A stretch of DNA of 32,000 nt from Opitutales bacterium (GTDB taxonomy: Bacteria; Verrucomicrobiota; Verrucomicrobiia; Opitutales; Coraliomargaritaceae): NCBI GenBank assembly GCA_049606355.1, contig JBMYVL010000006.1, positions 96,514-128,513 on the forward strand. The letters are read 5' to 3'. A program made the translations under genes and the position numbers. Below are positions 15,374 through 31,900 of this stretch, piece after piece. The notes below the pieces were generated by a model that did not search any database, was not told the origin of the DNA, and was given only the letters and a program-made list of their open reading frames with translations. Position 1 is the stretch's first letter, and each line of letters begins with the position of its first letter.

Positions 15374-16408
<1,035 letters not shown>

Positions 16409-19863: not shown

Positions 19864-21216
19864 ATGGAGGGGTCTGATCTTTCGGCAGTGCTTTTCCTGC
19901 GCGATTACAATACGCGCTTGGTGGTTGTCTGCACGCTTTTGCTCGGTTGCGCCTGCGGCTTGATGGGCAGCTTTCTTCTCCTGCGTAAACGCTCGTTGAT
20001 GGGGGATACGCTTTCGCATGCCACTTTGCCGGGCGTCGGTCTGGCCTACATGCTCGCTAGTTTACTGGGGGGCAATGGCAAGTCCCTGCCGGTGTTGCTT
20101 GCGGGGGCCACGCTTACCGGCTTGTTGGGTTGTTTTTGTGTGCTGTTGATTCGCAATCAGACGCGCATCAAAGACGATGCGGCGATGGGGATCGTCTTGA
20201 GCGTCTTTTTTGGCGCCGGGGTCGCGGTGCTGGGCCTGATACAAACCATGCCCGAGGGCAGTGCGGCAGGCTTGGAAGCCTTTATCTACGGCAAGACTGC
20301 GTCGATGATCATGAGTGATTTTCGCCTATTGCTGCTGGTTACCGGCACCGTACTTGTGCTTTCGGTTGTATTGTTTAAGGAATTGCGCCTGCTGTGTTTC
20401 GATGAGGTCTATGCCGCTGCGCAGGGCTGGCCCGTGAAGCGCTTGGATCTCCTGCTGCTCGCTTTGGTGACCTTGGTCACGGTAGCCGGGCTGCAAGCGG
20501 TCGGCCTGATATTGATCATTGCCTTCCTGATCACGCCTGCCGCGGCCGCACGGTTTTGGACCGATCGTCTGGACGGCATGTTAGTGCTCTCTGCGGTGAT
20601 TGGCGGCTTGAGCGGCTGGCTTGGTGCCAGTCTCAGCGCATTGGCGCCGCGCCTGCCGGCCGGTGCACTGATCGTTCTGGTCGCCGCCGGCTTCTTTATC
20701 GTCAGTCTGCTGTTGGGCACGGAGCGCGGTGTCGCGGTGCGTTGGTTGCGGCAACGCAGCCTCAAGCGCTCGGTGGGGCGGCAGCACTTATTGCGTGCGT
20801 TGTATGAGATTTTGGAAGCCGATGCCTTAAACAGTCGGTCGGTCCAGATTCGGCCCGTAGCGTTTCGGCAAGTGCGTGGCCGGCGGACTTGGTCGGACGC
20901 CCAGCTACGGCGGCATTTGCAGCATGCCTACCAGGACGGACTGCTCGAGGCCATTACCGCAGCGGACGGCATCGTGCTATCCGAAGCCGGTTTAGAAGCG
21001 GCGATCCAAGTCACGCGTAACCACCGCCTGTGGGAGCTCTATTTAATCGAATATGCCGATGTGGCGCCCAGTCGGGTCGACCGCGATGCGGATACGCTCG
21101 AGCACGTGCTGGGGGAGCAAATGGTGGGCGAACTGGAAGCCAAGTTGCAACGCCTGCGCATGGCCGGCACTGCAGTCGTGCCGCCGAGTCCACACCCCAT
21201 TCAACCCGGAGACTGA
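19864..21216 (+). CDS. ABC-3 metal permease fused to a C-terminal DtxR/MntR-like repressor domain (YtgC-YtgR-type architecture)
   Basis: 450 aa. Residues 1-~297 are a multi-TM ABC-3 permease, ending in LLLGTERGVAVRWLRQR at the point where the downstream paralogue terminates. Residues ~300-450 contain a wHTH-like segment and TRNHRLWELYL...DRDADTLEHVLGEQM, which resembles the DtxR-family dimerisation/metal-binding helix region. Confidence 0.78.
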   Translation: MEGSDLSAVLFLRDYNTRLVVVCTLLLGCACGLMGSFLLLRKRSLMGDTLSHATLPGVGLAYMLASLLGGNGKSLPVLLAGATLTGLLGCFCVLLIRNQTRIKDDAAMGIVLSVFFGAGVAVLGLIQTMPEGSAAGLEAFIYGKTASMIMSDFRLLLLVTGTVLVLSVVLFKELRLLCFDEVYAAAQGWPVKRLDLLLLALVTLVTVAGLQAVGLILIIAFLITPAAAARFWTDRLDGMLVLSAVIGGLSGWLGASLSALAPRLPAGALIVLVAAGFFIVSLLLGTERGVAVRWLRQRSLKRSVGRQHLLRALYEILEADALNSRSVQIRPVAFRQVRGRRTWSDAQLRRHLQHAYQDGLLEAITAADGIVLSEAGLEAAIQVTRNHRLWELYLIEYADVAPSRVDRDADTLEHVLGEQMVGELEAKLQRLRMAGTAVVPPSPHPIQPGD

Positions 21217-22141: not shown

Positions 22142-22161
<20 letters not shown>

Positions 22162-23299
22162 GGAACTCGTCGTTGTTCTTGGTCTGACTGAAGCGATCGA
22201 TCATCGTCTCTGCGGCATCTTCAATCTTTTGGCCGGCGAGTGCGCGGCGCAGGAATTGCGCGCCGGTGAGGTACTTGCCGGACAGCAACAGTTCTTCCTT
22301 GCGCGTGCCGGATGCATTGAGATTGATCGCAGGCCACAGGCGCAGCTCCGCCGCTTTGCGATCGAGCACCATTTCCATATTACCGGTGCCCTTGAACTCC
22401 TGAAAAATTAGGTCGTCCATCTTGCTGCCAGTTTCAATCAAGGCAGTGGCGATAATGGTCAAGCTGCCACCTTCTTCGCAGTTGCGTGCGGCAGAGAAAA
22501 TTTGCCGTGGCTTTTCCAGGGCACGGACATCCAGGCCACCGGTCATGGTGCGCCCACCTTTACCGGAAGAGGCGTTGTAAGCACGGGCCAGACGCGTGAT
22601 GGAGTCGAGCAGTAAGACGACATCTTTACCCGCTTCGACCATACGCTTGGCGCGCTCGACGGCGATTTCCGCCATACGCAGGTGGTTGGTGAGTTCTTCA
22701 TCGTTGGACGAGGCGTAGATCTCCGCATCCACGCTACGCTTGAAATCGGTGACTTCTTCGGGCCGCTCATCCACGAGCAGTACAATCACATGGCACTCCG
22801 GATGGTTTTGCAGGACGCCAGCAGCAATATCATGCAGCAGGGTGGTCTTACCGGTACGGGGTGGGGCAACAATCAAGCCACGCGTGCCCTTACCAATGGG
22901 GCAAAATAAATCCATGATGCGGGTGGTGACGCGGCCGTCGCTGTGCTCGAGGCGGATTTGTTCATCCGGCGCAATCGAGACCATTTGTTGGAAACTGAAG
23001 CGGCGCTTGCGCTCTTCGACCGTGGCGCCATCGATGGTGTCGATAAAGCGCACCTTGGGGTTGGGGTGGCGTGGGTTGTGTTGCGCTTTCGCAACAATGA
23101 AATTACCCTGCTTGAGTTTGAAGCGTTTGATCAGTTCGCGTGGCACAAAGGGGTCGCTGGGCGTGGTCTTGCCATTGCGTGTTGGGTCAATCAATTGCCC
23201 CGACTTATTCGGCAAGACTTCCAGAATGCCGGAGACCTCGATCTCATTGTCCTGCGTTTGTGCTGCCTTGGGCTCTTCGGTTTCGTTGTGGTCGCTCAT
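22142..23299 (-). CDS. rho: Transcription termination factor Rho (no canonical N-terminal helix-bundle subdomain)
   Basis: OB-fold region [16 protein letters not shown]...[18 protein letters not shown], Walker [35 protein letters not shown], and a C-terminal segment typical of Rho. I prefer ATG 23299 over the upstream TTG at 23374. Confidence 0.9.
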
Positions 23300-23554
23300 A
23301 TGGTCAAGCTGGCTACAGCTTTTGCTGTGATGTGCGCATAGAGTGCGACATGACAGGTGGTGGGGCAGATTCAATCCGCCGCGTGGAAGGGTATCGTTGC
23401 TTTGGATCGGTGAGCCACAGGCTCAATCGCTTGCGAAGGATGTTTCGCACAATCCGTCAACGATGTCCGCATTGAGGGGCACGAGCTGCGTACTGTCAAT
23501 GCTTTAGAAGGGCGAGTCGCTTGCTGCGAAACCGCCAGCCGGAGCGAACCGACA

Positions 23555-24013
23555 CTAAGAAAAGACTTCGACCATCGCCTGCCGACGATAGTCAAAAATG
23601 TACTGAAGTTGTTTTTTTACGTACAGCCAATGCGCGATCGCCCCCAAGGGGCCGAAGGGCAGGGTGTAGTGCACACGATCCACAAAGCGTACCCCATCCG
23701 CATGCTCGCTGATTTCGTGGTAGTGGTACCACAGACGGTAAGGGCCGATGCGCTGCTCATCGACAAAGGAGTGATGGTCGCGCACGTGTTTGATTTCGGA
23801 GAGCCAGGGCTGCTTGCCCAGCAGTGGGATGCCAATCCGATACTCAATCATCAGCCCATTGTACATTTCCTCTGGCACCTCCGAAATGATCTCAAAGCTC
23901 ATATCATCGGGCGTGATACGGTTGAGATTCTGAGGTCGACGAATAAAGTCCCATGCGGTGTTCAGGTCGGTCGCGATAACTTGTTCGCGGTACAATTGCT
24001 TGAGGGCAGGCAT
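23555..24013 (-). CDS. SRPBCC (START/polyketide-cyclase-like) ligand-binding superfamily protein
   Basis: 152 aa. The size and pattern (…NLNRITPDDMSFEI…, …DEQRIGPYRLWYHYHE…) are as in small SRPBCC/cyclase-dehydrase proteins. It is divergent from the desaturase operon. Confidence 0.55.
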   Translation of the reverse strand: MPALKQLYREQVIATDLNTAWDFIRRPQNLNRITPDDMSFEIISEVPEEMYNGLMIEYRIGIPLLGKQPWLSEIKHVRDHHSFVDEQRIGPYRLWYHYHEISEHADGVRFVDRVHYTLPFGPLGAIAHWLYVKKQLQYIFDYRRQAMVEVFS

Positions 24014-24104
24014 GCTGAGAAAACGTCAGCGGGCTGATGACCTTACAAGCGTTGATAAAACCGTAAGTTTGCATTAGCGCTTACGTTTCCTTTGATACCC
24101 GACC

Positions 24105-25016
24105 ATGAACTTACTCAAACTACTCAGGCACTGTGTGATGGAAGAGGACAACCGCCTCCTGCTGACATCATCGCCGTTGATTTTTATGCACCTTGCCTGT
24201 ATCGGCATCTTTTTTACCGGCTTTAGTTGGGTCGCGGTGGCAGCACTGGCGGTGACTTATTTGACACGGGTCTTCGCGCTCACCGCCGGCTTCCACCGCT
24301 ATTTCTCACACCGCGCGTTCAAGACCAGTCGCGCCTTTCAGTTCGTGTTGGCGTGGGTGGGCACGTCGTCCGCACAGCTCGGGCCGATGTGGTGGGCGGC
24401 CAACCACCGCCATCATCATCAACACTCGGATAAAGAAGCGGACATACACTCACCGGTTATTCGCGATGCCTTTTGGGCGCACATTGGTTGGGTGCTGTGC
24501 AAGGCACACAGTGAAATTAAATACGATCGGATCAAAGACCTAACCAAATATCCGGAGCTCAAGTTTATCGATCGGTTTCATGTGTTGCCGGTGCTGAGTC
24601 TAATTGTGGCGCTCTATGCGATTGGTTGGGGCCTGAATGTGGCCTTCCCACAGCTGGGTACGAGTGGCTTACAGTTGGTGATGTGGGGCTTCTTTTTGAG
24701 TACGGTGTTGGTCTACCACGTGACGTTTTGTGTGAATTCGGTGACGCACATCATCGGCAGTAAGCGCTTTGCGACTGATGATGAAAGTCGCAACAACTGG
24801 TGGGTTGCCTTGCTAACCTTTGGCGAAGGTTGGCACAACAATCACCACCGTTACCCTTCTTCGGCACGGCAAGGGATGTATTGGTGGGAGATTGATGTTT
24901 CGTATTACATCCTGCGTTTATTCGAGCTCTGCGGTATTGTTTGGGATGTGCGGGCGTATCCACAAAAGATCTACGCGGAGGCCGCTGCCAATGCGGCTCG
25001 CTCGCACGGCGCATGA
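24105..25016 (+). CDS. Membrane acyl-CoA/acyl-lipid desaturase (Delta9 stearoyl-CoA-desaturase family)
   Basis: Three His boxes in the canonical order: HRYFSHR, HRHHHQHSD, HNNHHRYP. Hydrophobic segments flank them. Confidence 0.85.
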   Translation: MNLLKLLRHCVMEEDNRLLLTSSPLIFMHLACIGIFFTGFSWVAVAALAVTYLTRVFALTAGFHRYFSHRAFKTSRAFQFVLAWVGTSSAQLGPMWWAANHRHHHQHSDKEADIHSPVIRDAFWAHIGWVLCKAHSEIKYDRIKDLTKYPELKFIDRFHVLPVLSLIVALYAIGWGLNVAFPQLGTSGLQLVMWGFFLSTVLVYHVTFCVNSVTHIIGSKRFATDDESRNNWWVALLTFGEGWHNNHHRYPSSARQGMYWWEIDVSYYILRLFELCGIVWDVRAYPQKIYAEAAANAARSHGA

Positions 25017-25795
25017 GTGGCTATTGGGCAGCTTTGTTTGTAGTCGGCTTCGCTGTTGCGGGAAGCATGTATGCCTTGGCCCTGCGTTGGCGCCGGATGG
25101 CCTTGGTGGATCTCATCTGGACGGCGGGCGTCGGGATCGCCGCGGCTGCGTACGTGAGCGCGCATGAGCTCTACCACGCACGCGCGCTCTTGGTACTGGC
25201 GGTGGTGTCGCTCTGGTCGCTGCGCTTGACTGTGCATCTGTTTTGCGACCGGGTACGTAGTGGGGATGAAGATCCGCGCTATGTAAACTTGGCCAAACAT
25301 TGGGGGGCCGCAGCGCGGCGAAATTTCTTCGGTCTGTTTTTGGTGCAAATTGTCTTCGTGGCTTTGTTTATCCTGCCGGTTAGCACCGCGCTGCAGCACC
25401 GTGCGGCAGTTTCATGGCTGGATGGGCTGGCGCTGACGATTGCGCTTGTGGCGTTTCTGGGTGAAAGCATCGCCGATCGCCAGTTGGCTCGTTTTCGTGC
25501 CGACACGCGGCATGCCACGCAAGTCTGCCAAGAGGGGCTATGGCGTTATTCGCGGCACCCGAACTATTTTTTTGAGTGGGTGCACTGGTGGGCTTACGTC
25601 GCGTTTGCTTGGGGCAGTCCACAGTCATGGGTCGCTTGGATCGGGCCGGTCGCCATGTACATTTTTCTACGGTACCTTACCGGTATCCCTTACGCTGAGC
25701 GCTCCTCCTTGCAGCGGCGTGGCGAAGCGTATCGCCAGTATCAATACACCACCCAAGCATTCTTTTTATGGAAACCACGCACACCTCCGTCCTAA
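25013..25795 (+). CDS. DUF1295 family membrane protein (steroid 5-alpha-reductase / ICMT-like fold)
   Basis: Multi-TM with GLWRYSRHPNYFFEWVHWW, the hallmark C-terminal motif of DUF1295. ATG 25013 overlaps the desaturase stop (ATGA). Confidence 0.75.
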   Translation: MSGYWAALFVVGFAVAGSMYALALRWRRMALVDLIWTAGVGIAAAAYVSAHELYHARALLVLAVVSLWSLRLTVHLFCDRVRSGDEDPRYVNLAKHWGAAARRNFFGLFLVQIVFVALFILPVSTALQHRAAVSWLDGLALTIALVAFLGESIADRQLARFRADTRHATQVCQEGLWRYSRHPNYFFEWVHWWAYVAFAWGSPQSWVAWIGPVAMYIFLRYLTGIPYAERSSLQRRGEAYRQYQYTTQAFFLWKPRTPPS

Positions 25796-27000
25796 GGACT
25801 GCAACTGACACGAACACGGTACCCTTGCGTTGGGTGGAGCGTCTCTTTGTGCGTCTACTGCGCCGACTGCACTCAGGTCGTTTGCGCATCGAATTTCCAT
25901 CCGGCGCGCAGTGTGTGGTGGGTGAGCAGGATTTGCCGCAGGTTAATTTGCAGATCCAGCATCCGTCTTTCTTCAAAAAGGTGTTGCGTGGCGGCAGTGT
26001 CGGCTTCGGTGAGGCCTACGTCGAGGGTCTCTGGACGACGAACGATCTTAGCGCCCTGTTGAAATTGCTCGCGCGCAACCAGCAAGATGTCGGCCGTTTA
26101 CGCAAAGGCTTTTCTTATTTGACGCAGCGGCTCAACCGCGTGGGGCATGTGGCGCGGCGCAACACACGGGTCAAAAGCCGGCAAAATATTCAAGAGCACT
26201 ACGATCTCAGTAATGAGTTTTACCAGCTCTTTTTGGATCCAAGCATGACCTACTCGAGCGCACTGTTCGCTCATTACTACGAGAGCTTGGAGCAGGCACA
26301 GCTCAATAAAATCGACCGCATGTTGGATCTGGCTGCCGTGGGTCAGGGCGACCACTTGTTGGAGATCGGCACCGGTTGGGGCGCACTGGCATTACGCGCC
26401 GCACAGCGTGGCTGCCGCGTGACGACCATTACGCTTTCCGAAGCACAGTTTGCGCTGGCACAGCAACGCTTTGCTGCGGCGGGTGTGAGTGAGCAGATCG
26501 ACTTGCGCCTGCAGGACTATCGGGATTTGGACGGGCGCTTCGATGCGGTCGTCTCCTGTGAGATGATAGAAGCAGTCGGTCACGAATACTTGGCGAGCTA
26601 TTTTGAAACGATCCGTGATTGCCTGAAGCCACGCGCGCGCGCGGTGCTCCAAGCGATTACCATACCGGATGATCGCTATGCGGCGTACTGCCGTAGTTGC
26701 GATTGGATTCAAAAATACATTTTCCCGGGCGGCCACTTGCCGTCTCCGGGTGCGATGCAGGCGCAGGTCGATGCCGCGCGCGAGATCAAAGTAATACTCA
26801 GTGAGAGCTTTGGTCGCCACTATGCAGAAACCCTGCGCCGCTGGGCAAAGGCCTTTAACCGTAGTCGGCCTGAACTGAATGCCCTCGGATTTGATTCCGA
26901 GTTTCAGCGCAAGTGGAATTATTATTTCAGCTATTGCGAAGCGGGCTTTGATACCGACTTGATTGATGTGAAGCACATCGTCATCAAGCGCAAAGACTAG
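25768..27000 (+). CDS. Cyclopropane-fatty-acyl-phospholipid synthase family SAM-dependent methyltransferase (long form)
   Basis: 410 aa with IQEHYDLSNEFYQLFLD, the SAM motif LLEIGTGWGALAL, YIFPGGHLPS, and the C-terminal YFSYCEAGF. Confidence 0.85.
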   Translation: METTHTSVLRTATDTNTVPLRWVERLFVRLLRRLHSGRLRIEFPSGAQCVVGEQDLPQVNLQIQHPSFFKKVLRGGSVGFGEAYVEGLWTTNDLSALLKLLARNQQDVGRLRKGFSYLTQRLNRVGHVARRNTRVKSRQNIQEHYDLSNEFYQLFLDPSMTYSSALFAHYYESLEQAQLNKIDRMLDLAAVGQGDHLLEIGTGWGALALRAAQRGCRVTTITLSEAQFALAQQRFAAAGVSEQIDLRLQDYRDLDGRFDAVVSCEMIEAVGHEYLASYFETIRDCLKPRARAVLQAITIPDDRYAAYCRSCDWIQKYIFPGGHLPSPGAMQAQVDAAREIKVILSESFGRHYAETLRRWAKAFNRSRPELNALGFDSEFQRKWNYYFSYCEAGFDTDLIDVKHIVIKRKD

Positions 27001-27046
27001 GGCGAGCGACACTCCTAAGCCGCACACTGCTGCCGAGCTGAAAGCA

Positions 27047-27304
27047 CTACTTGTGTGCGTCGGACAGCAGGTTCTTCAGGGCTTCCTTTTTATCTTCCGG
27101 CATGGCGGGGCGCTTCGTTTGCAGCGTCGCTTCCTGCTCTTTGTAGCAGCGGCACATGTCCTGACTGTCCATCACCTGCTGGTTAAACTTACCGCAGAAA
27201 ATGCAGAGCTTAACGTGCAGCTTGAGGAAAAAACGGCGTAGCGGCGGAAGCTTATCATAATCTTCGCGATGCAGTGCGTTGGAAACTTGTTTACAGGTGA
27301 ACAT
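27047..27304 (-). CDS. Small soluble zinc-finger (ZAS / zf-HC2-type) anti-sigma factor
   Basis: 85 aa, no TM segment, with C4-x25-H30-x3-C34-x2-C37. It lies 11 nt downstream of the ECF sigma gene. Confidence 0.6.
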   Translation of the reverse strand: MFTCKQVSNALHREDYDKLPPLRRFFLKLHVKLCIFCGKFNQQVMDSQDMCRCYKEQEATLQTKRPAMPEDKKEALKNLLSDAHK

Positions 27305-27315
27305 AGCTGAGTGCT

Positions 27316-27964
<649 letters not shown>

Positions 27965-27975
<11 letters not shown>

Positions 27976-28759
27976 GCGGTGTTTCCGGTGTGTCGCGATT
28001 GATCACGGTGTGGGCGGAGTGCGGCGCCGGGCGCGGGTGCACGGCTAGCTGTTTTCGATAGGCCAGCACCGCAGCTTGCCAAACGATACGCGGCAGGCTG
28101 TTGAGCGCGGTATCCCAGGGGTGATACAGGGCATAGCGACGGATGGCGCGATTGTGGATCGCGTGGCCGTTTCCTTGCATCCATGTGCGCAGAACGCATG
28201 CGCCGTCACGATGCAGGTCGACCCCGAGGTACAACTCGCCTGCAGTCACTTTAAAGGTAAAGGCATAGTCTCCGCGCAGATCATTAAAGGGGGAGACGTG
28301 AAAGTCTTTCGGGCAGCTAGCGGTCCAGGTATCGGCTGCGGATTGGTAGAGCTCAGTCAGTGGGTAAATGTGTCGATCACCGAAGGTGTTGTTGACTTCC
28401 GCTATCGCGCACAGCAGCTCCGCGCCGTCGAGCCGCAGGTAGAAATTGACGGGGTTAAAGGCGTAGCCGAAATAGCGCGGCGAGGTGACGAGCATGGTGC
28501 GTTGCCCGGCTTGTAGTGGCGGTAAAAATGCCTCCAACTGCGGTTCAATCGCCTGTGCTTTGCCGTGCAAATAGTCGCAGTCGCGGAGGCTGAGTACGGC
28601 GCGGTCGTTGTGCCGAAAAAGGCGGGTCTGCTCGGCGAGCGCATCCAGCTCGGCGAGATCAAAGGCGAAGAAGGTTATCGGATAGCTGAACGCGTGAGCT
28701 ACGGGTCCACAGCGTTCGTGGACCACGGTGCCACGGTAGATCTCAGAGCGCAGACTCAT
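27965..28759 (-). CDS. DUF1365 family protein
   Basis: 264 aa. The N terminus (IYRGTVVHERCGPVAHAFSYPITFFAFDL) and the later SPRYFGYAFNPVNFY are characteristic of DUF1365. Its position between the FAD oxidoreductase and Cfa-type genes is as in other bacteria. Confidence 0.7.
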
Positions 28760-30033
28760 AGCTCAATGCCGAAGCCACGCGCTACCTCGGTGGCCGATTG
28801 GACCGCATCTTCGTGGAAGCCGTAGCCGAAGTAACTGCCGCAGTACCAGGTGTTGCGCTGACCATTCAGCGTGCGTAGGCCTTGCTGGGTAGCCATCGAT
28901 TCAAACGAGTACAGCGGGTGGGTGAGGGTGGTTTGATTGATAATACTTGTTGGATCGATCGGGCGTGTCGTATTCAGGGTGACGATGTAGTCCCGCTCGG
29001 TCTGCAACTGCTGCAAGCGATTCATGTAGTAACTGACGGAGACCGGCCGATCATCGGCATGCCCGGGCTCGCGGGCAAAATTCCAAGATGCCCACAATTT
29101 GCGATTGGGTGGGAGTTGCGTGGTGTCGGTGTGCAGCGTCACCGTGTTGGCCTGATAGCGCCACGGACTGAGGTTGGCAGTTTCTTCAACGCTGGGATCG
29201 CTCAATAGTTGGTAGGCTTCGTCGGCGTGCGTACCGATCACCACCTGATCAAATTCCTGAGTGGGAGCAGCCGCGAAGTCGAGCTGCACCTTGCCTGCGT
29301 CGCGTCGGATGCGCTGCGGAGCGCAACTCAGCTGCGGCGGGTGTGCAAAGGAGTTGAGCATGGCGCGCACGTAGGTGTGCGAGCCACCCTGTACATAGTT
29401 CCATTGCGGGCGATTGACCAAACGTAGCAGCCCGTGGTTTTCGAGGAAGTGTAGGTAAGGCTGCGCCGGAAATTCGTGCATGCGCTGGATCGGGGACGAC
29501 CAGATCGCTGCACCCATCGGGTAGAGGTAGTGGTTGAGGAAGGCTGCACTGAAGCCACGATCGGCGCAGTAGTCGCCCAGCGCACGATCCTGGAGGTAGC
29601 CGCTGTTGAGATCCGCGTAGCCGATTCGTGCAAAGCGCCACAGCTCTTTGACCAAGCTCAGGTGCTGCGGTTTAAACCAGTAAGCGAGGGATGGAAACAG
29701 GGTAGCCAGGCTAGTGCCCGCATAGCCATAGTTCGTTTGCGGATCGTGAAAGCTGAAGGTCATCGAGCTATCCGCCACTGCGACGCCGAGCTGCTCGAGC
29801 ACTTGGGTGAACTTTGGGTAGTTGCGATGGTTCATCACGATGAAGCCGGTATCCACCGCAGTCCCGGCATCCGGACCGTCTTGAATCGTTAAGGTGCGGG
29901 TATGGCCGCCCGCGTAGGCGTTCTTCTCAAAAAGCTGCACTTCGTGGCGGCGGCTGAGCAGCCATGCGGCAGTCAGGCCGGCGACCCCGCAACCGACCAC
30001 TGCGATGCGTTGTTTGGGCTCCTTTATCTGCAT
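28756..30033 (-). CDS. FAD/NAD(P)-binding amine-oxidase / phytoene-desaturase-like oxidoreductase
   Basis: The N-terminal dinucleotide fold IAVVGCGVAGLTAAWLL...LFEKNAYAGGH is present. It overlaps the DUF1365 start by 4 nt. Confidence 0.8.
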   Translation of the reverse strand: MQIKEPKQRIAVVGCGVAGLTAAWLLSRRHEVQLFEKNAYAGGHTRTLTIQDGPDAGTAVDTGFIVMNHRNYPKFTQVLEQLGVAVADSSMTFSFHDPQTNYGYAGTSLATLFPSLAYWFKPQHLSLVKELWRFARIGYADLNSGYLQDRALGDYCADRGFSAAFLNHYLYPMGAAIWSSPIQRMHEFPAQPYLHFLENHGLLRLVNRPQWNYVQGGSHTYVRAMLNSFAHPPQLSCAPQRIRRDAGKVQLDFAAAPTQEFDQVVIGTHADEAYQLLSDPSVEETANLSPWRYQANTVTLHTDTTQLPPNRKLWASWNFAREPGHADDRPVSVSYYMNRLQQLQTERDYIVTLNTTRPIDPTSIINQTTLTHPLYSFESMATQQGLRTLNGQRNTWYCGSYFGYGFHEDAVQSATEVARGFGIEL

Positions 30034-30036
30034 GGT

Positions 30037-31053
30037 TCAGTGGGTGGGGCTGAAGCGGTAGTGGGTGACGCACCATTCATGGCCGTCGTTGTAGGCGAAG
30101 AGTTCCGCGCAGGCCATGTAAAACATACGCCAGCGCTGCAGCCACAGCTCGGTGTGTTGGCCATAGCAGGGCTGCAGGCAGGAGCGAAGTTCCGCAGCAT
30201 GGCGATCGTGCAGCTTGAGCCACGCCTCCAGCGTCTGGCTGTAGTGACGCCCATTGACCGTCCAGCGCGCGGCTTCGGTAAAGCCGCTGGCTGCAGTCGG
30301 GAGTAGATCGGCGGCAGGCATGATGCCGCCGGTAAAGAAGTGGCGCGCCATCCAGTCTTTCGCGCCACGGTCGTCAAACAAGTACGTGTGCCGACGGTGG
30401 GTGAAGATGTGCACGAAGAGTTGGCCCTGCGGGTGGAGCCAGTTGCGCAGGCGTTGGAACAACTGGCGGTGGTTGCGCACGTGTTCAAACATTTCCACCG
30501 AGACGATCCGATCGAAAGCTTGCTCGGGTTCAAACTCGTTAATGTCGCAGGTAATCACGTGCAGATTGCTGAGTCCGCGCGCCCGTGCTTGGCTTTCAAT
30601 GTAGGCACGCTGTGAGTGGGAGTTACTCACCGCCGTGATCGCGCTTGCCGGATAGTGGGCGGCCATCCACAGGCTGAGGGAGCCCCAGCCACAGCCCAGT
30701 TCGAGGATCGCTTGCCCGTCAGCGAGCTTCGCGCGCTCGCAGCTGAGGCGCAGCATGGCCGCCTCCGCCTGTTCGAGACTCGCGCTCGCATCCGTCCAGT
30801 AGCCACTGCTGTATTTCAAGTGTGGGCCCAATACCTTGCGGAAATAATCTGCAGGAATCTCGTAGTGCTGTGCATTGGCGGCTTCGGTGGCCTCGGCAAG
30901 CGGACGTTGACTCAAGCAGTCGATCCATTCAGCAGCGCTGCGCTGGCACTGCTGCGTTTCACGCAGGCGCTGGGCGAGCAGGCGGCGGATCCCCCAGCGG
31001 AGCATGCGGTCGGGCAGCAACCCGCGTTCGGCAAGAATGATGGGTAAAGACAT
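30037..31053 (-). CDS. Cfa/mycolic-acid-synthase family SAM-dependent methyltransferase (short form)
   Basis: 338 aa with HYEIPADYFRKVLGPHLKYSSGYW, the SAM motif ILELGCGWGSLSLWMA, VEMFEHV and FFTGGIMP. It is the first gene of a five-gene minus-strand operon. Confidence 0.8.
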   Translation of the reverse strand: MSLPIILAERGLLPDRMLRWGIRRLLAQRLRETQQCQRSAAEWIDCLSQRPLAEATEAANAQHYEIPADYFRKVLGPHLKYSSGYWTDASASLEQAEAAMLRLSCERAKLADGQAILELGCGWGSLSLWMAAHYPASAITAVSNSHSQRAYIESQARARGLSNLHVITCDINEFEPEQAFDRIVSVEMFEHVRNHRQLFQRLRNWLHPQGQLFVHIFTHRRHTYLFDDRGAKDWMARHFFTGGIMPAADLLPTAASGFTEAARWTVNGRHYSQTLEAWLKLHDRHAAELRSCLQPCYGQHTELWLQRWRMFYMACAELFAYNDGHEWCVTHYRFSPTH

Positions 31054-31092
31054 AATTTAAATACAGTAGAAGCATTCGTGGTGAGGGCGATG

Positions 31093-31117
31093 AACTTACA
31101 CGAAGACACTGTAAGTT
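31093..31117. promoter_or_regulatory. Inverted repeat AACTTACA-N9-TGTAAGTT in the divergent promoter region
   Basis: 8-bp perfect arms at 31093-31100 and 31110-31117. The same GTAAG/CTTAC core recurs three times in the other divergent promoter region of the cluster (24042-24085). Confidence 0.4.
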
Positions 31118-31143
31118 TTGACTGCCTGTAACGCTTTATTGAG

Positions 31144-31749
31144 ATGTTAATCACTGCTGCCAAACAGCTCCGCTTGCCCGTAATTGCCGCACTGCTGTGC
31201 ACCAGCGGATGCACCGCCTCGAAAACCATGCACACACAAACCGTACCGGACGCCGACTATCACGCCGCCTTGGAGTGGTCCGATCCGGCCAACTACAGCT
31301 TGCCGCCTGCCGGTTCTCCGGCCGAGGCAGCGATGCTGGCACGGGTCGAAGCCCTATTCACGGATTACACCTACGCGAACTTGTCCGCAGCAATTCCACA
31401 GGTGTATGCCGAAACCGTCTATTTTCGCGATGCCTTTAAATTACTGCGTCGTTCCGCAGCGATCCGCGCGTATTTCCTTGAAGGTCTGGAGGTGTTGGAA
31501 GCCGCGGAGTTTAGCTTTAACCAAGTCGTACGCAGTGGCGGCGACTTTTATATCGATTGGACCATGCGCCTCGACTTCAAGAAAACGCCGAGCGGCACTT
31601 GGGAAGAATCGATCGGCATGAGCCGTATGCGCTTCAATAGCGATGGGCAGGTGATCTTCCACCAGGACTATTGGGATCCGACCGATATCGTGTACAAGCG
31701 TATCCCAATCGCCAAGCAGTTGATCGCCTACGTGAAGTCGAAGCTGTAG
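31144..31749 (+). CDS. NTF2/SnoaL-like fold lipoprotein
   Basis: Signal peptide with lipobox LLCTSGC. The mature ~175 aa have an NTF2-like pattern (…VYFRDAF…DFYIDWTM…HQDYWD). This is a recurrent neighbour of Cfa/DUF1365 clusters. Confidence 0.55.
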   Translation: MLITAAKQLRLPVIAALLCTSGCTASKTMHTQTVPDADYHAALEWSDPANYSLPPAGSPAEAAMLARVEALFTDYTYANLSAAIPQVYAETVYFRDAFKLLRRSAAIRAYFLEGLEVLEAAEFSFNQVVRSGGDFYIDWTMRLDFKKTPSGTWEESIGMSRMRFNSDGQVIFHQDYWDPTDIVYKRIPIAKQLIAYVKSKL

Positions 31750-31810: not shown

Positions 31811-31900
31811 GGAGAAGTGACAGAGTGGCCGAATGTGCCTGACTCGAAATCAGGTGTGCCAGAAATGGTACCGGGGGTTCAAATCCCTCCTTCTCCGCCA
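31811..31900 (+). tRNA. tRNA-Ser (anticodon CGA), class II with long variable arm, CCA encoded
   Basis: Acceptor GGAGAAG/CTTCTCC, 3-bp D stem, anticodon stem CCTGA/TCAGG with loop CTCGAAA, 6-bp variable arm (GTGCCA-GAAA-TGGTAC), T arm GGGGG-TTCAAAT-CCCTC, discriminator G plus CCA. Confidence 0.92.

Follow-up and report, generated by a model that had tools for sequence, protein, structure and literature searches.

A ten-gene locus of a marine Opitutales bacterium with predicted methylated furan fatty-acid genes and a candidate ECF sigma factor regulon

Introduction

Furan fatty acids (FuFAs) are scavengers of radicals and singlet oxygen, that is, membrane antioxidants, in fish, plants and bacteria; to our knowledge, their biosynthesis has been established only in two alphaproteobacteria. 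Here we describe a block of ten genes, at positions 23555-31749 of a stretch of 32,000 nucleotides (nt) from an Opitutales bacterium (Verrucomicrobiota; GenBank assembly GCA_049606355.1, contig JBMYVL010000006.1, positions 96,514 to 128,513; the whole stretch is called ‘the window’ below), which we think probably represents the Opitutales version of the methylated FuFA system, with its parts and its regulator in one place.

In Rhodobacter, three proteins are enough to make a FuFA: UfaM, a Cfa-type methylase that converts cis-vaccenate to 11Me-12t-18:1; UfaD (RSP1091), an NAD/FAD-binding, phytoene-desaturase-like protein that forms the conjugated diene; and UfaO (RSP1090), a DUF1365 protein that uses O2 to close the ring (Lemke et al. 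2020, PMC7380195). Rhodopseudomonas palustris has, in addition, FufM, a second S-adenosylmethionine (SAM) methylase that is 26% identical to UfaM and makes the dimethyl form, 9D5-FuFA (PMC7380195). FufM is in turn reported to be 37.9% identical to At4g33110/LIME1, a protein annotated as a putative coclaurine N-methyltransferase (CNMT). As Nuss et al. (2013, PMC3818230) noted, many genomes have homologues of RSP1090 and RSP1091 beside sigma/anti-sigma genes, and it is with this arrangement, and with the sigmaE-ChrR singlet-oxygen regulon of Cereibacter (Rhodobacter) sphaeroides, that the locus described below is most readily compared.

Results

Gene content of the block

The ten genes are arranged in four back-to-back units, with the following products (aa, amino acids; ECF, extracytoplasmic function; ZAS, zinc-binding anti-sigma; AF2, AlphaFold2; ORF, open reading frame):

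23555-24013, minus strand, unit 1: SRPBCC (START/Bet v 1-like) ligand-binding-fold protein, 152 aa (annotation of an identical protein; AF2 model)
24105-25016, plus strand, unit 2: membrane fatty-acid desaturase, 303 aa, stearoyl-CoA/acyl-lipid Delta9 family (Pfam FA_desaturase 6e-21; His boxes HRYFSH, HRHHH and HNNHH)
25013-25795, plus strand, unit 2: DUF1295 polytopic membrane protein, 260 aa, ICMT/PEMT/steroid-5-alpha-reductase superfamily, RHPNY motif (Pfam DUF1295 1e-61)
25768-27000, plus strand, unit 2: long Cfa-type SAM methyltransferase, 410 aa, proposed UfaM equivalent (first methylation, of a cis-monoene; Pfam CMAS 2e-81)
27047-27304, minus strand, unit 3: small cytoplasmic zinc-motif (ZAS) anti-sigma, 85 aa, without cupin domain or transmembrane segment (C4...H30xxxC34xxC37)
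27316-27909, minus strand, unit 3: ECF sigma factor, 197 aa counted from M23 (longest ORF 27316-27975; Sigma70_r2 1.9e-15, r4_2 3.9e-9)
27965-28759, minus strand, unit 3: DUF1365 protein, 264 aa, proposed UfaO equivalent (Pfam DUF1365 3e-63)
28756-30033, minus strand, unit 3: FAD/NAD-binding amine-oxidase/phytoene-desaturase-like enzyme, 425 aa, proposed UfaD equivalent (Amino_oxidase 1e-15, NAD_binding_8 1e-12)
30037-31053, minus strand, unit 3: short CMAS-type SAM methyltransferase, 338 aa, CNMT-like, proposed FufM equivalent (second ring methyl; Pfam CMAS 9e-42)
31144-31749, plus strand, unit 4: exported NTF2/SnoaL-like lipoprotein, 201 aa, with signal peptide and lipobox-like TSGC (SnoaL_2 8e-8)

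A check of ORF coordinates and strands found the four units where the original prediction had placed them; its total of eleven genes was a miscount, the remaining gaps (91, 46, 11 and 90 nt) being too small for another gene. Within unit 2, the desaturase and DUF1295 genes share an ATGA overlap at 25013, and the DUF1295 and long methylase genes overlap by 28 nt at 25768. In unit 3, the short methylase and FAD enzyme genes are separated by 3 nt (30034-30036), the FAD enzyme and DUF1365 genes share an ATGA overlap at 28756-28759, and 11 nt (27305-27315) separate the sigma from the anti-sigma gene; all of these are as first described. The family calls have likewise been upheld by hidden Markov model searches, which returned FA_desaturase, DUF1295, CMAS (twice), Sigma70_r2/r4_2, DUF1365, Amino_oxidase and SnoaL_2; neither the 152-aa protein nor the anti-sigma (zf-HC2 included) has a Pfam match, and for the former the call of SRPBCC needed a predicted structure.

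The predicted furan fatty-acid core

The DUF1365 gene stands right behind the gene for the FAD/NAD-binding, phytoene-desaturase-like enzyme, as is characteristic of the FuFA pathway, and does so in all loci that we typed (49, found by a genome scan with the DUF1365 protein and typed by tblastn with the ten window proteins; they include no Cereibacter or Rhodopseudomonas locus). The proteobacterial homologues of the two proteins are 30-47% identical to those of the window, and the FAD enzyme matches the HpnE/CrtD models of NCBIfam weakly. In its gene families the core matches the described methylated FuFA pathway, and the block is best seen as a known system in a Verrucomicrobiota form, not as a pathway of a new kind; the individual catalytic assignments, and the product, are predictions from sequence.

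This bears on what had been claimed for the locus. The original prediction of a membrane fatty-acyl modification system stands, both in its link to an ECF sigma/zinc anti-sigma pair and in its kinship with the sigmaE-ChrR regulon of the singlet-oxygen response, but the grounds on which the gene set was held to go beyond the known pathway do not. DUF1365, then taken to lack a demonstrated function, had acquired one in 2020, when UfaO was shown to be a ring-forming DUF1365 protein (PMC7380195); and two Cfa paralogues do not exceed a pathway in which UfaM and FufM are already two methylases, the paralogues here falling in the matching groups.

Two divergent CMAS-type methylases

The long and short methylases are 28% identical to each other. 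Among solved structures the long one is closest to a cyclopropane fatty-acid synthase (CFAS; 5z9o, 1.5e-55), and it shares 40-43% identity with the CFA-family protein encoded right behind FAD-DUF1365 in Paracoccus and on a Burkholderia plasmid, compared with 33% for E. coli Cfa. The short one matches CNMT (6gkv, 1.8e-63) far better than E. coli CFAS (6e-32), and shares 50% identity with the Burkholderia cluster's second methylase; since FufM is itself related to the CNMT-annotated At4g33110, we read it as FufM-like. The long methylase would accordingly be UfaM-like and the short one FufM-like, a predicted assignment made through such proxies, the reference proteins Q3J4I7 and Q6NBA4 lying outside the comparison.

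The long methylase does not have the full residue set of an E. coli-type Cfa. Of C139, E239, H266 and Y317 in the E. coli enzyme, which we take to be bicarbonate-site residues, E239 and Y317 are retained, but C139 is replaced by Ser and H266 by Gln, here and in 9-10 of 10 orthologues. The NCBIfam CFA equivalog models are the best matches for the methylases, yet score far below their cutoffs (245-256 versus 400-600). Across four phyla, the long methylase and its orthologues have in common Ser at the position of Cfa C139, Gln at H266 and Ala at H240; it is possible that this pattern is a signature dividing olefin-forming methylases from cyclopropane synthases.

A predicted promoter motif shared by the four units

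A bipartite motif, TGTAAG-N16-CG(T/A/C)(T/A), is present on each strand in both divergent intergenic regions of the block. The 32-kb window holds five matches, all within the cluster at predicted promoter positions, and none elsewhere; they are listed here together with one further, sigma70-like element:

24022-24047, minus strand: predicted ECF-type promoter of the SRPBCC gene, TGTAAG-N16-CGTT, ending 9 nt ahead of the ATG
24062-24087, plus strand: predicted ECF-type promoter of the desaturase-DUF1295-long methylase operon, CGTAAG-N16-CGTT (motif scan)
27401-27426, minus strand: motif within the sigma gene, TGTAAG-N16-CGAA, predicted promoter of the anti-sigma gene, 97 nt 5' of its ATG
27940-27947, minus strand: conserved TTGACGCC, sigma70-like -35 element, 30 nt (38 nt from the start of the -35 hexamer) 5' of the sigma start codon
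31075-31100, minus strand: predicted ECF-type promoter of the short methylase-FAD-DUF1365(-sigma-anti-sigma) operon, TGTAAG-N16-CGAA (motif scan)
31110-31135, plus strand: predicted ECF-type promoter of the SnoaL-like lipoprotein gene, TGTAAG-N16-CGCT, ending 9 nt ahead of the ATG

The same motif recurs in orthologous upstream regions, at 28 of 33 for the SnoaL-like gene, 18 of 30 for the short methylase operon, 8 of 10 for the desaturase operon and 9 of 10 for the SRPBCC gene, against a background of 0.083 per kb; in the Opitutales loci its half-sites are conserved and the spacer sequence is not. It also stands immediately ahead of the ATG of two stand-alone SRPBCC genes in Coraliomargarita genomes (L141, with a 17-nt spacer, and L142). 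The regulatory link between the lipid genes and the sigma factor, at first guessed from adjacency, is now supported by an ECF-type motif common to all four units and to the sigma gene itself. At the SRPBCC and SnoaL-like genes the -10-like CG elements end 9 nt from the ATG (24013-24022 and 31135-31144), which suggests that these mRNAs may be leaderless or near-leaderless.

The copy inside the sigma gene is found in all sigma genes examined, where it lies over the region 4 codons for C-K-x-x-D-x-T-P-N. In 70 distinct sigma genes, the Cys codon under the motif is TGT in 69/70 (versus 55% elsewhere), the Lys codon AAG in 70/70 (versus 35%) and the Pro codon CCG in 61/61 (versus 24%); NCG is kept where the residue is Ala or Ser, and nearby synonymous sites vary freely. 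Fixation of synonymous codons in this way points to selection on the DNA rather than on the protein, and is the best available link between the motif and the neighbouring ECF sigma, which is predicted to recognise it. An intragenic promoter within the coding sequence of a sigma factor is a neat regulatory detail, and no new principle.

Upstream of the sigma gene itself the picture differs. A metagenome scan with the sigma factor gave 80 loci, 74 of them with enough upstream sequence, and a match to the motif was found in 0/74 when 220 nt were searched. Autoregulation of the sigma gene through the motif was rejected in that form; the sigma70-like TTGACGCC stands there instead, and is also found ahead of many stand-alone sigma genes, often 3' of a ybeY-like gene. 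Of the ‘self-regulated’ system originally proposed, what holds is the motif ahead of the anti-sigma. A generic scan of the cluster for sigma70 promoters and terminators gave fewer sites than shuffled sequence and was uninformative.

The sigma factor and its zinc-motif partner

The sigma factor has regions 2 and 4 only, a length of about 200 aa and an adjacent anti-sigma gene, as an ECF (group 4 sigma70) factor should, and scores 89 bits with TIGR02937 (sigma70-ECF; cutoff 42.9). Its longest ORF begins with a 22-codon N-terminal extension that occurs in no orthologue, the orthologues aligning from M23; the start is therefore probably at 27909 rather than 27975, and the 11-nt overlap with the DUF1365 gene first described is probably an artefact of the longest ORF (the remaining gaps and overlaps of unit 3 being unaffected). 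Starting at M23 leaves a gap of 55 nt between the two genes, which contains the conserved TTGACGCC.

Orthologues of the sigma factor are 73-99% identical to it. Its similarity to the ChrR-partnered sigma of Azospirillum (27% over 59 aa) and to the RskA-type-partnered sigmas of Burkholderia and Paracoccus (~23%) amounts to weak local BLAST matches, suggesting that different ECF lineages have been recruited to the same lipid genes; it is neither an orthologue of the RpoE-ChrR sigma nor associated with TGATCC-N16-CGTA. None of the actinobacterial SigR/SigH models appears among the best 25 of its 78 NCBIfam matches. The ECF re-classification paper does not mention cyclopropane, DUF1365 or fatty-acid contexts, and a full-text literature search for the ECF group was also empty.

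The gene for the anti-sigma adjoins that for the sigma factor in 78 of the 80 loci. C4, H30, C34 and C37 are invariant among 68 distinct orthologues (85-108 aa), with C51 99% conserved, and the protein fits the ZAS pattern of HxxxCxxC plus an upstream Cys/His ligand, so that zinc binding is predicted; the NCBIfam antisigmaE match (4.8e-7) is below cutoff. ChrR proteins couple an N-terminal ZAS to a C-terminal cupin-like domain over ~200-230 aa (228 aa in Azospirillum), whereas the protein here ends at 85 aa without a second domain, so that ChrR-type sensing cannot apply. The input signal is most likely oxidative or photo-oxidative stress, sensed through the thiols of the anti-sigma; we base this on its invariant cysteines, on the photolyase gene in a related Rhodanobacter cluster (see below) and on Chlamydomonas, where singlet oxygen jointly induces CFA1, CFA2 (CNMT-like), DUF1365 and DUF1295 genes.

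Accessory genes

The desaturase has the three His boxes and the SCD/DesC likeness of the Delta9 type, its closest solved structure being SCD1 (4ymk, 1.5e-27), and is 47-65% identical to desaturases encoded beside UfaD/UfaO homologues in other phyla; Delta9 is to be taken as the family label, with regiospecificity a prediction. If the enzyme is indeed a Delta9 desaturase, the furan ring would lie two carbons closer to the carboxyl group than in 9M5-FuFA.

Membership of the next protein in DUF1295 (PF06966) is clear-cut (208.8 bits against a cutoff of 20.4, covering 2-235 of the 235 profile positions), and further matches, to Steroid_dh (Pfam, 2.7e-7) and to an ICMT structure (PDB 4a2n, E 0.004), place it in a superfamily of membrane enzymes; UsgR, a DUF1295-like protein of fungi, is an ene-reductase. 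The likely options for its role would be reduction of a pathway intermediate or of an oxidised FuFA, or a further methylation. Its gene adjoins the short methylase gene in Proteobacteria (Burkholderia, L009; also L051, L052 and L056) and overlaps the long one in Opitutales; it always has a CMAS-type partner, though not always the same one.

For the 152-aa protein, Pfam at E<=10 and a 12-sequence profile run against PDB sequences gave no match. The identical database protein (P0241) is named an SRPBCC family protein by both NCBI and JGI. Whilst a single-sequence AF2 prediction reached a mean predicted local distance difference test (pLDDT) score of just 45, the model from an alignment with 51 homologues, which we used instead, has a pLDDT of 87, a secondary structure of E-H-H-E6-H and Foldseek matches to START/PYL/CoxG structures at probability 1.0 and a template modelling (TM) score of 0.6-0.8 (top 0.77). 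As modelled, the protein has the helix-grip fold of the SRPBCC family (beta-alpha-alpha-beta6-alpha, with a long C-terminal helix). In Opitutales its gene is always found with the set formed by the long methylase, DUF1295 and desaturase genes. The stand-alone orthologues in Coraliomargarita genomes (L141, 8001-8459; L142, 10001-10465) lie behind htpG, and that of L141 has a Rho-like gene close by, like the copy in the window. It may be that SRPBCC and Rho genes were neighbours ancestrally, and that the desaturase operon came to lie beside them by insertion.

The exported lipoprotein matches SnoaL_2 with 33.3 bits (cutoff 27); a signal peptide and Cys are seen in 19 of 34 orthologous N-termini as extracted, and its gene and the FAD-DUF1365 operon diverge in 23 of 26 Opitutales genomes. 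Lipid binding or handling is the likely option both for this protein and for the SRPBCC protein, which is taken to be cytoplasmic.

Conservation and modularity

The full set of ten genes recurs, in unchanged order, in one further genome (L012; 64-93% aa identity) and on a JGI metagenome contig (L061; sigma factor 99% identical), so that the arrangement is not a matter of chance. It is rare nonetheless. We counted the genes near DUF1365 in 26 Opitutales species genomes with adequate flanks:

FAD enzyme and DUF1365: 26/26
SnoaL-like lipoprotein: 23/26
short methylase: 21/26
long methylase, DUF1295, desaturase and SRPBCC, always as one set: 7/26
sigma and anti-sigma: 5/26
complete ten-gene block: 1/26 (L012)

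The sigma/anti-sigma pair, for its part, stands alone in 49 of 74 loci. The block in the window is a rare joining of three modules that are usually dispersed. Other combinations occur too: in Lentimonas (L003), Coraliomargarita (L001) and Thalassobacterium (L039), FAD-DUF1365 has the long methylase alone nearby.

The neighbourhood comparison that had been called for bears out a wider association, the lipid genes co-clustering with FAD-DUF1365 over several phyla. Desaturase, long methylase, DUF1295 and short methylase genes accompany the pair in varying combinations in Rhodanobacter, Aquimonas, a Burkholderiales metagenome-assembled genome (MAG), Omnitrophota, Acidobacteriota and Pseudomonadales, with all four in the first three. 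In Rhodanobacter, a single strand carries ECF sigma, RskA-type anti-sigma, photolyase, desaturase, FAD enzyme, DUF1365, long methylase, DUF2878, DUF1295, short methylase and lipocalin; the gene set of the Burkholderia plasmid resembles it, and includes lipocalins as well as a chalcone-isomerase-like protein. The ‘supercluster’ of the original prediction is, then, a recurrent architecture, its versions differing only in regulator type and lipid-binding partners. A search of the literature available to us for a post-2020 paper on extended bacterial FuFA clusters found none.

One contig labelled as a Polaribacter sp. MAG (L027) carries SnoaL, FAD enzyme and DUF1365 genes whose products are 61-69% identical to the Opitutales proteins; its Bacteroidota label is probably a binning error rather than a sign of gene transfer.

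Setting of the block in the window

Flanking the block are a Rho-like gene (22142-23374) and, on the other side, a tRNA-Ser gene (31811-31900). The host is a marine Opitutales, the closest homologues of each protein tested coming from Opitutales, Puniceicoccaceae and Coraliomargaritaceae of marine and saline metagenomes. Elsewhere in the window, at 19864-21216 (plus strand), an ABC-3 (Mn/Zn-type) permease has a C-terminal DtxR-type metal-binding and dimerisation domain (Fe_dep_repr_C) fused to it; the gene is part of a ZnuA/ABC/ABC-3 transporter operon. At 15374-16405 (minus strand), a 343-aa ORF matches the N- and C-domains of glutamine synthetase with its catalytic domain partly covered, and may be a truncated or divergent glutamine synthetase-like gene.

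Discussion

A proposed mechanism

What the sequences show directly are the gene families, the synteny, a conserved motif and selection at the level of codons; catalytic roles, product, signal and the pairing of sigma and motif are predictions. The order of steps that we propose follows by homology from the Cereibacter/Rhodopseudomonas pathway, with phospholipid acyl chains as the substrate. The Delta9-family membrane desaturase would supply a cis-monoene, to which the long, UfaM-like methylase would add a methyl group whilst shifting the double bond; the UfaD-like FAD enzyme would then introduce a second, conjugated double bond, and the UfaO-like DUF1365 protein an oxygen derived from O2, closing the furan ring. 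Finally, the short, FufM-like methylase would add the second ring methyl, giving a dimethyl FuFA. Transcription of the lipid genes in all four units would be driven by the ECF sigma from TGTAAG-N16-CG(T/A/C)(T/A); by way of the intragenic motif the same sigma would also drive the anti-sigma gene, for negative feedback. The sigma factor itself would be made from a housekeeping-type (sigma70-like) promoter and, in the window, also by read-through from the operon promoter. The signal would probably reach the anti-sigma through its cysteines, which under oxidative or photo-oxidative stress would respond to oxidation of their thiols or to electrophiles derived from lipids.

Weighing the alternatives

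Several points count against this reading. The UfaM/FufM assignment is built on proxies for the characterised proteins (UniProt Q3J4I7, Q3IYV7, Q3IYV8 and Q6NBA4), and the furan-lipid product is, for this organism, a prediction from its genes. In 10 of the 26 Opitutales genomes the short methylase is the only one with FAD-DUF1365 (within 10 kb), and there it may be the first methylase. The characterised substrate of UfaM is cis-vaccenate (Delta11), not a Delta9 product. UfaM, UfaD and UfaO suffice in Rhodobacter, so that the desaturase and DUF1295 are dispensable for FuFAs as such, and would modify or support the pathway rather than define it. On the regulatory side, the anti-sigma drew no Pfam match, zf-HC2 included; no motif was found upstream of the 74 sigma genes; and 21 of the 26 Opitutales genomes retain the motif without a linked sigma gene.

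Some of these points would be accommodated by two independent lipid modules under one regulon. Short methylase-FAD-DUF1365 would then suffice for a FuFA (or a related product), with the short methylase acting first, and desaturase-DUF1295-long methylase would yield another product, such as a mid-chain methyl-branched or cyclopropane acyl chain, through desaturation, methylenation and finally reduction by DUF1295. The modules are indeed separable, the former having the short methylase only in those 10 of 26 genomes and the latter being a fixed four-gene set in 7 of 26; the DUF1295 superfamily includes C=C reductases (the Steroid_dh match; UsgR); 10-methyl stearate is made from a Delta9 substrate by a CMAS-type methylenase and a reductase (PMC5660069); and the 28-nt overlap of the DUF1295 and long methylase genes suggests coupled expression. 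The loci of Lentimonas, Coraliomargarita and Thalassobacterium, however, pair FAD-DUF1365 with the long methylase only; in Proteobacteria it is the long type that lies right behind FAD-DUF1365 and the short type that has DUF1295 beside it; and the short type belongs to the FufM/LIME1/CNMT group. We regard this division of the genes as rather unlikely. Ordinary cyclopropane fatty acids, or general adaptation of membrane fluidity, with the FAD enzyme and DUF1365 performing chemistry other than that of UfaD/UfaO in this phylum, would fit the CFA synthase models as best NCBIfam matches (below cutoff though these are) and the modest 30-47% identity to the proteobacterial homologues. Set against this are the loss of two of the four presumed Cfa bicarbonate ligands (the long methylase and its orthologues have Ser for C139 and Gln for H266), CFA model scores far under their cutoffs (e.g. 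245 versus 400) and the strict FAD-DUF1365 pairing, a signature of UfaD/UfaO; we give the idea very little credence.

A separate doubt concerns the regulator: the motif might be the site of another regulator or sigma, and the linkage of the sigma pair to lipid genes, confined to certain genomes, might be due to chance or to some other cause. The empty upstream regions of the 74 sigma genes would then be unsurprising, as would a sigma that is beside the lipid genes in 5 of 26 Opitutales genomes with the motif kept in others; moreover, the two copies in each divergent intergenic region form an inverted repeat, a possible operator. Yet the motif is bipartite, with a fixed 16-nt unconserved spacer and a CG(T/A) -10-like element, as in ECF promoters (cf. 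TGATCC-N16-CGTA of the RpoE-ChrR type), and occurs as single, non-palindromic copies at the stand-alone SRPBCC genes and within the sigma gene, where synonymous-site selection in 70/70 sequences is hard to explain outside this sigma/anti-sigma circuit. An unrelated regulator thus seems improbable to us, and a methylated FuFA system under its own ECF sigma the reading that best suits the locus.

A bolder version of the same reading can be entertained, and we offer it as speculation that is unlikely to be right in full: an undescribed furan-lipid system spanning several phyla, in which the desaturase would provide the olefin and with it fix the ring position (7-carboxyalkyl FuFAs such as 7M5/7D5, not 9M5), DUF1295 would act in the membrane as an ene-reductase, or else as a methyltransferase, completing the pathway or recycling oxidised (dioxo-ene) FuFA, and the SRPBCC protein and NTF2-like lipoprotein would move lipids to the outer membrane. 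Control would lie with a feedback-only ECF circuit whose anti-sigma promoter is embedded in the codons of the sigma DNA-binding domain, and abundant marine Opitutales would be an unrecognised source of FuFAs in marine food webs.

In its more modest form, the locus extends the genes of the FuFA pathway to Verrucomicrobiota common in marine metagenomes; points to a desaturase, DUF1295 and a FufM-like methylase as companions of UfaD/UfaO over several phyla; and offers a concrete regulon of five predicted promoter sites, one ECF sigma and a minimal zinc anti-sigma. It is also a compact, ten-gene test bed for the role of DUF1295, for the substrate and reductant supply of UfaO, and for how lipid protection is switched without the cupin sensor of ChrR.

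Comparison with known systems

The RsrA-type ZAS anti-sigmas (sigmaR-RsrA of Streptomyces) are soluble, at most ~100 aa long and free of a sensor domain; they carry Cys...HxxxCxxC and would sense thiol-reactive stress directly. The anti-sigma here is likewise small and soluble with Cys...HxxxCxxC, its zinc binding and redox switching being predicted; its targets differ, being lipid enzymes rather than genes of thiol homeostasis. In the SAK1-dependent singlet-oxygen response of Chlamydomonas, and for UFAM/UFAD, UFAO1 and LIME1/FUFM of Arabidopsis lipid droplets, CFA1, CNMT-like CFA2/LIME1, DUF1365 and DUF1295 are co-regulated or co-localised; these, however, are dispersed eukaryotic genes under other regulators, and FuFA synthesis there is hypothesised only.

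BfaB/BfaA, which make 10-methyl stearate (tuberculostearic acid), resemble the proposed scheme in that a phospholipid Delta9 monoene is methylated by a CMAS-type enzyme and then undergoes a redox step. They differ in that BfaA is described as an FAD-linked oxidoreductase compared with MurB, DUF1365 is absent and the product is saturated (PMC5660069). That paper did not support BfaA as amine-oxidase-like, nor DUF1365 and DUF1295 in the neighbourhood of mycobacterial ufaA1, and both ideas were dropped.

Closer at hand are the uncharacterised clusters of Rhodanobacter sp. A1T4 (L052) and of the Burkholderia anthina plasmid (L009), which share the six-enzyme set (desaturase, FAD enzyme, DUF1365, long methylase, DUF1295 and short methylase) as well as an ECF sigma/anti-sigma pair and a small lipid-binding-fold protein. 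Their anti-sigmas are membrane proteins of the RskA type; lipocalin, chalcone-isomerase-like, DUF2878 and photolyase genes take the place of SRPBCC and SnoaL; and DUF1295 is paired there with the short methylase, here with the long one. In R. palustris, ufaD-ufaO-ufaM (RPA2571-2569) and FufM (RPA0924) provide the same combination of two divergent SAM methylases (26% identical there, 28% here) with an FAD enzyme and DUF1365, a likeness drawn via proxies for the RPA proteins; by analogy, the predicted end product here is a dimethyl FuFA. The arrangement differs in that the FufM-like gene is here the first of the ufaD-ufaO operon, with the UfaM-like gene in a separate operon.

The system of C. 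sphaeroides, sigmaE-ChrR with UfaM (RSP2144), UfaD and UfaO, is alike in having an ECF sigma/zinc anti-sigma pair adjoining an operon that opens with the FAD enzyme and DUF1365, a Cfa-type methylase in the same regulon, phospholipid acyl chains as the target and a stress-protective role (target and role being, here, predictions from the genes). RSP1089 was considered as a Cfa paralogue matching the long methylase and ruled out, being a GPH-family symporter. Differences are found at each level of control: the sigma here is ~23-27% identical to the ChrR-/RskA-partnered sigmas of such clusters, the 85-aa anti-sigma has no cupin domain, and TGTAAG-N16-CGTT replaces TGATCC-N16-CGTA. They extend to the gene set, with a GPH symporter, a hypothetical lipoprotein and an SDR there as against a desaturase, DUF1295, a second methylase, SRPBCC and an NTF2-like lipoprotein here, and to the host, a non-phototrophic lineage of another phylum. 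What is new in the Opitutales locus is the promoter motif, the different type of ECF/anti-sigma pair and the conserved set of accessory genes, built around a pathway core that was already described.

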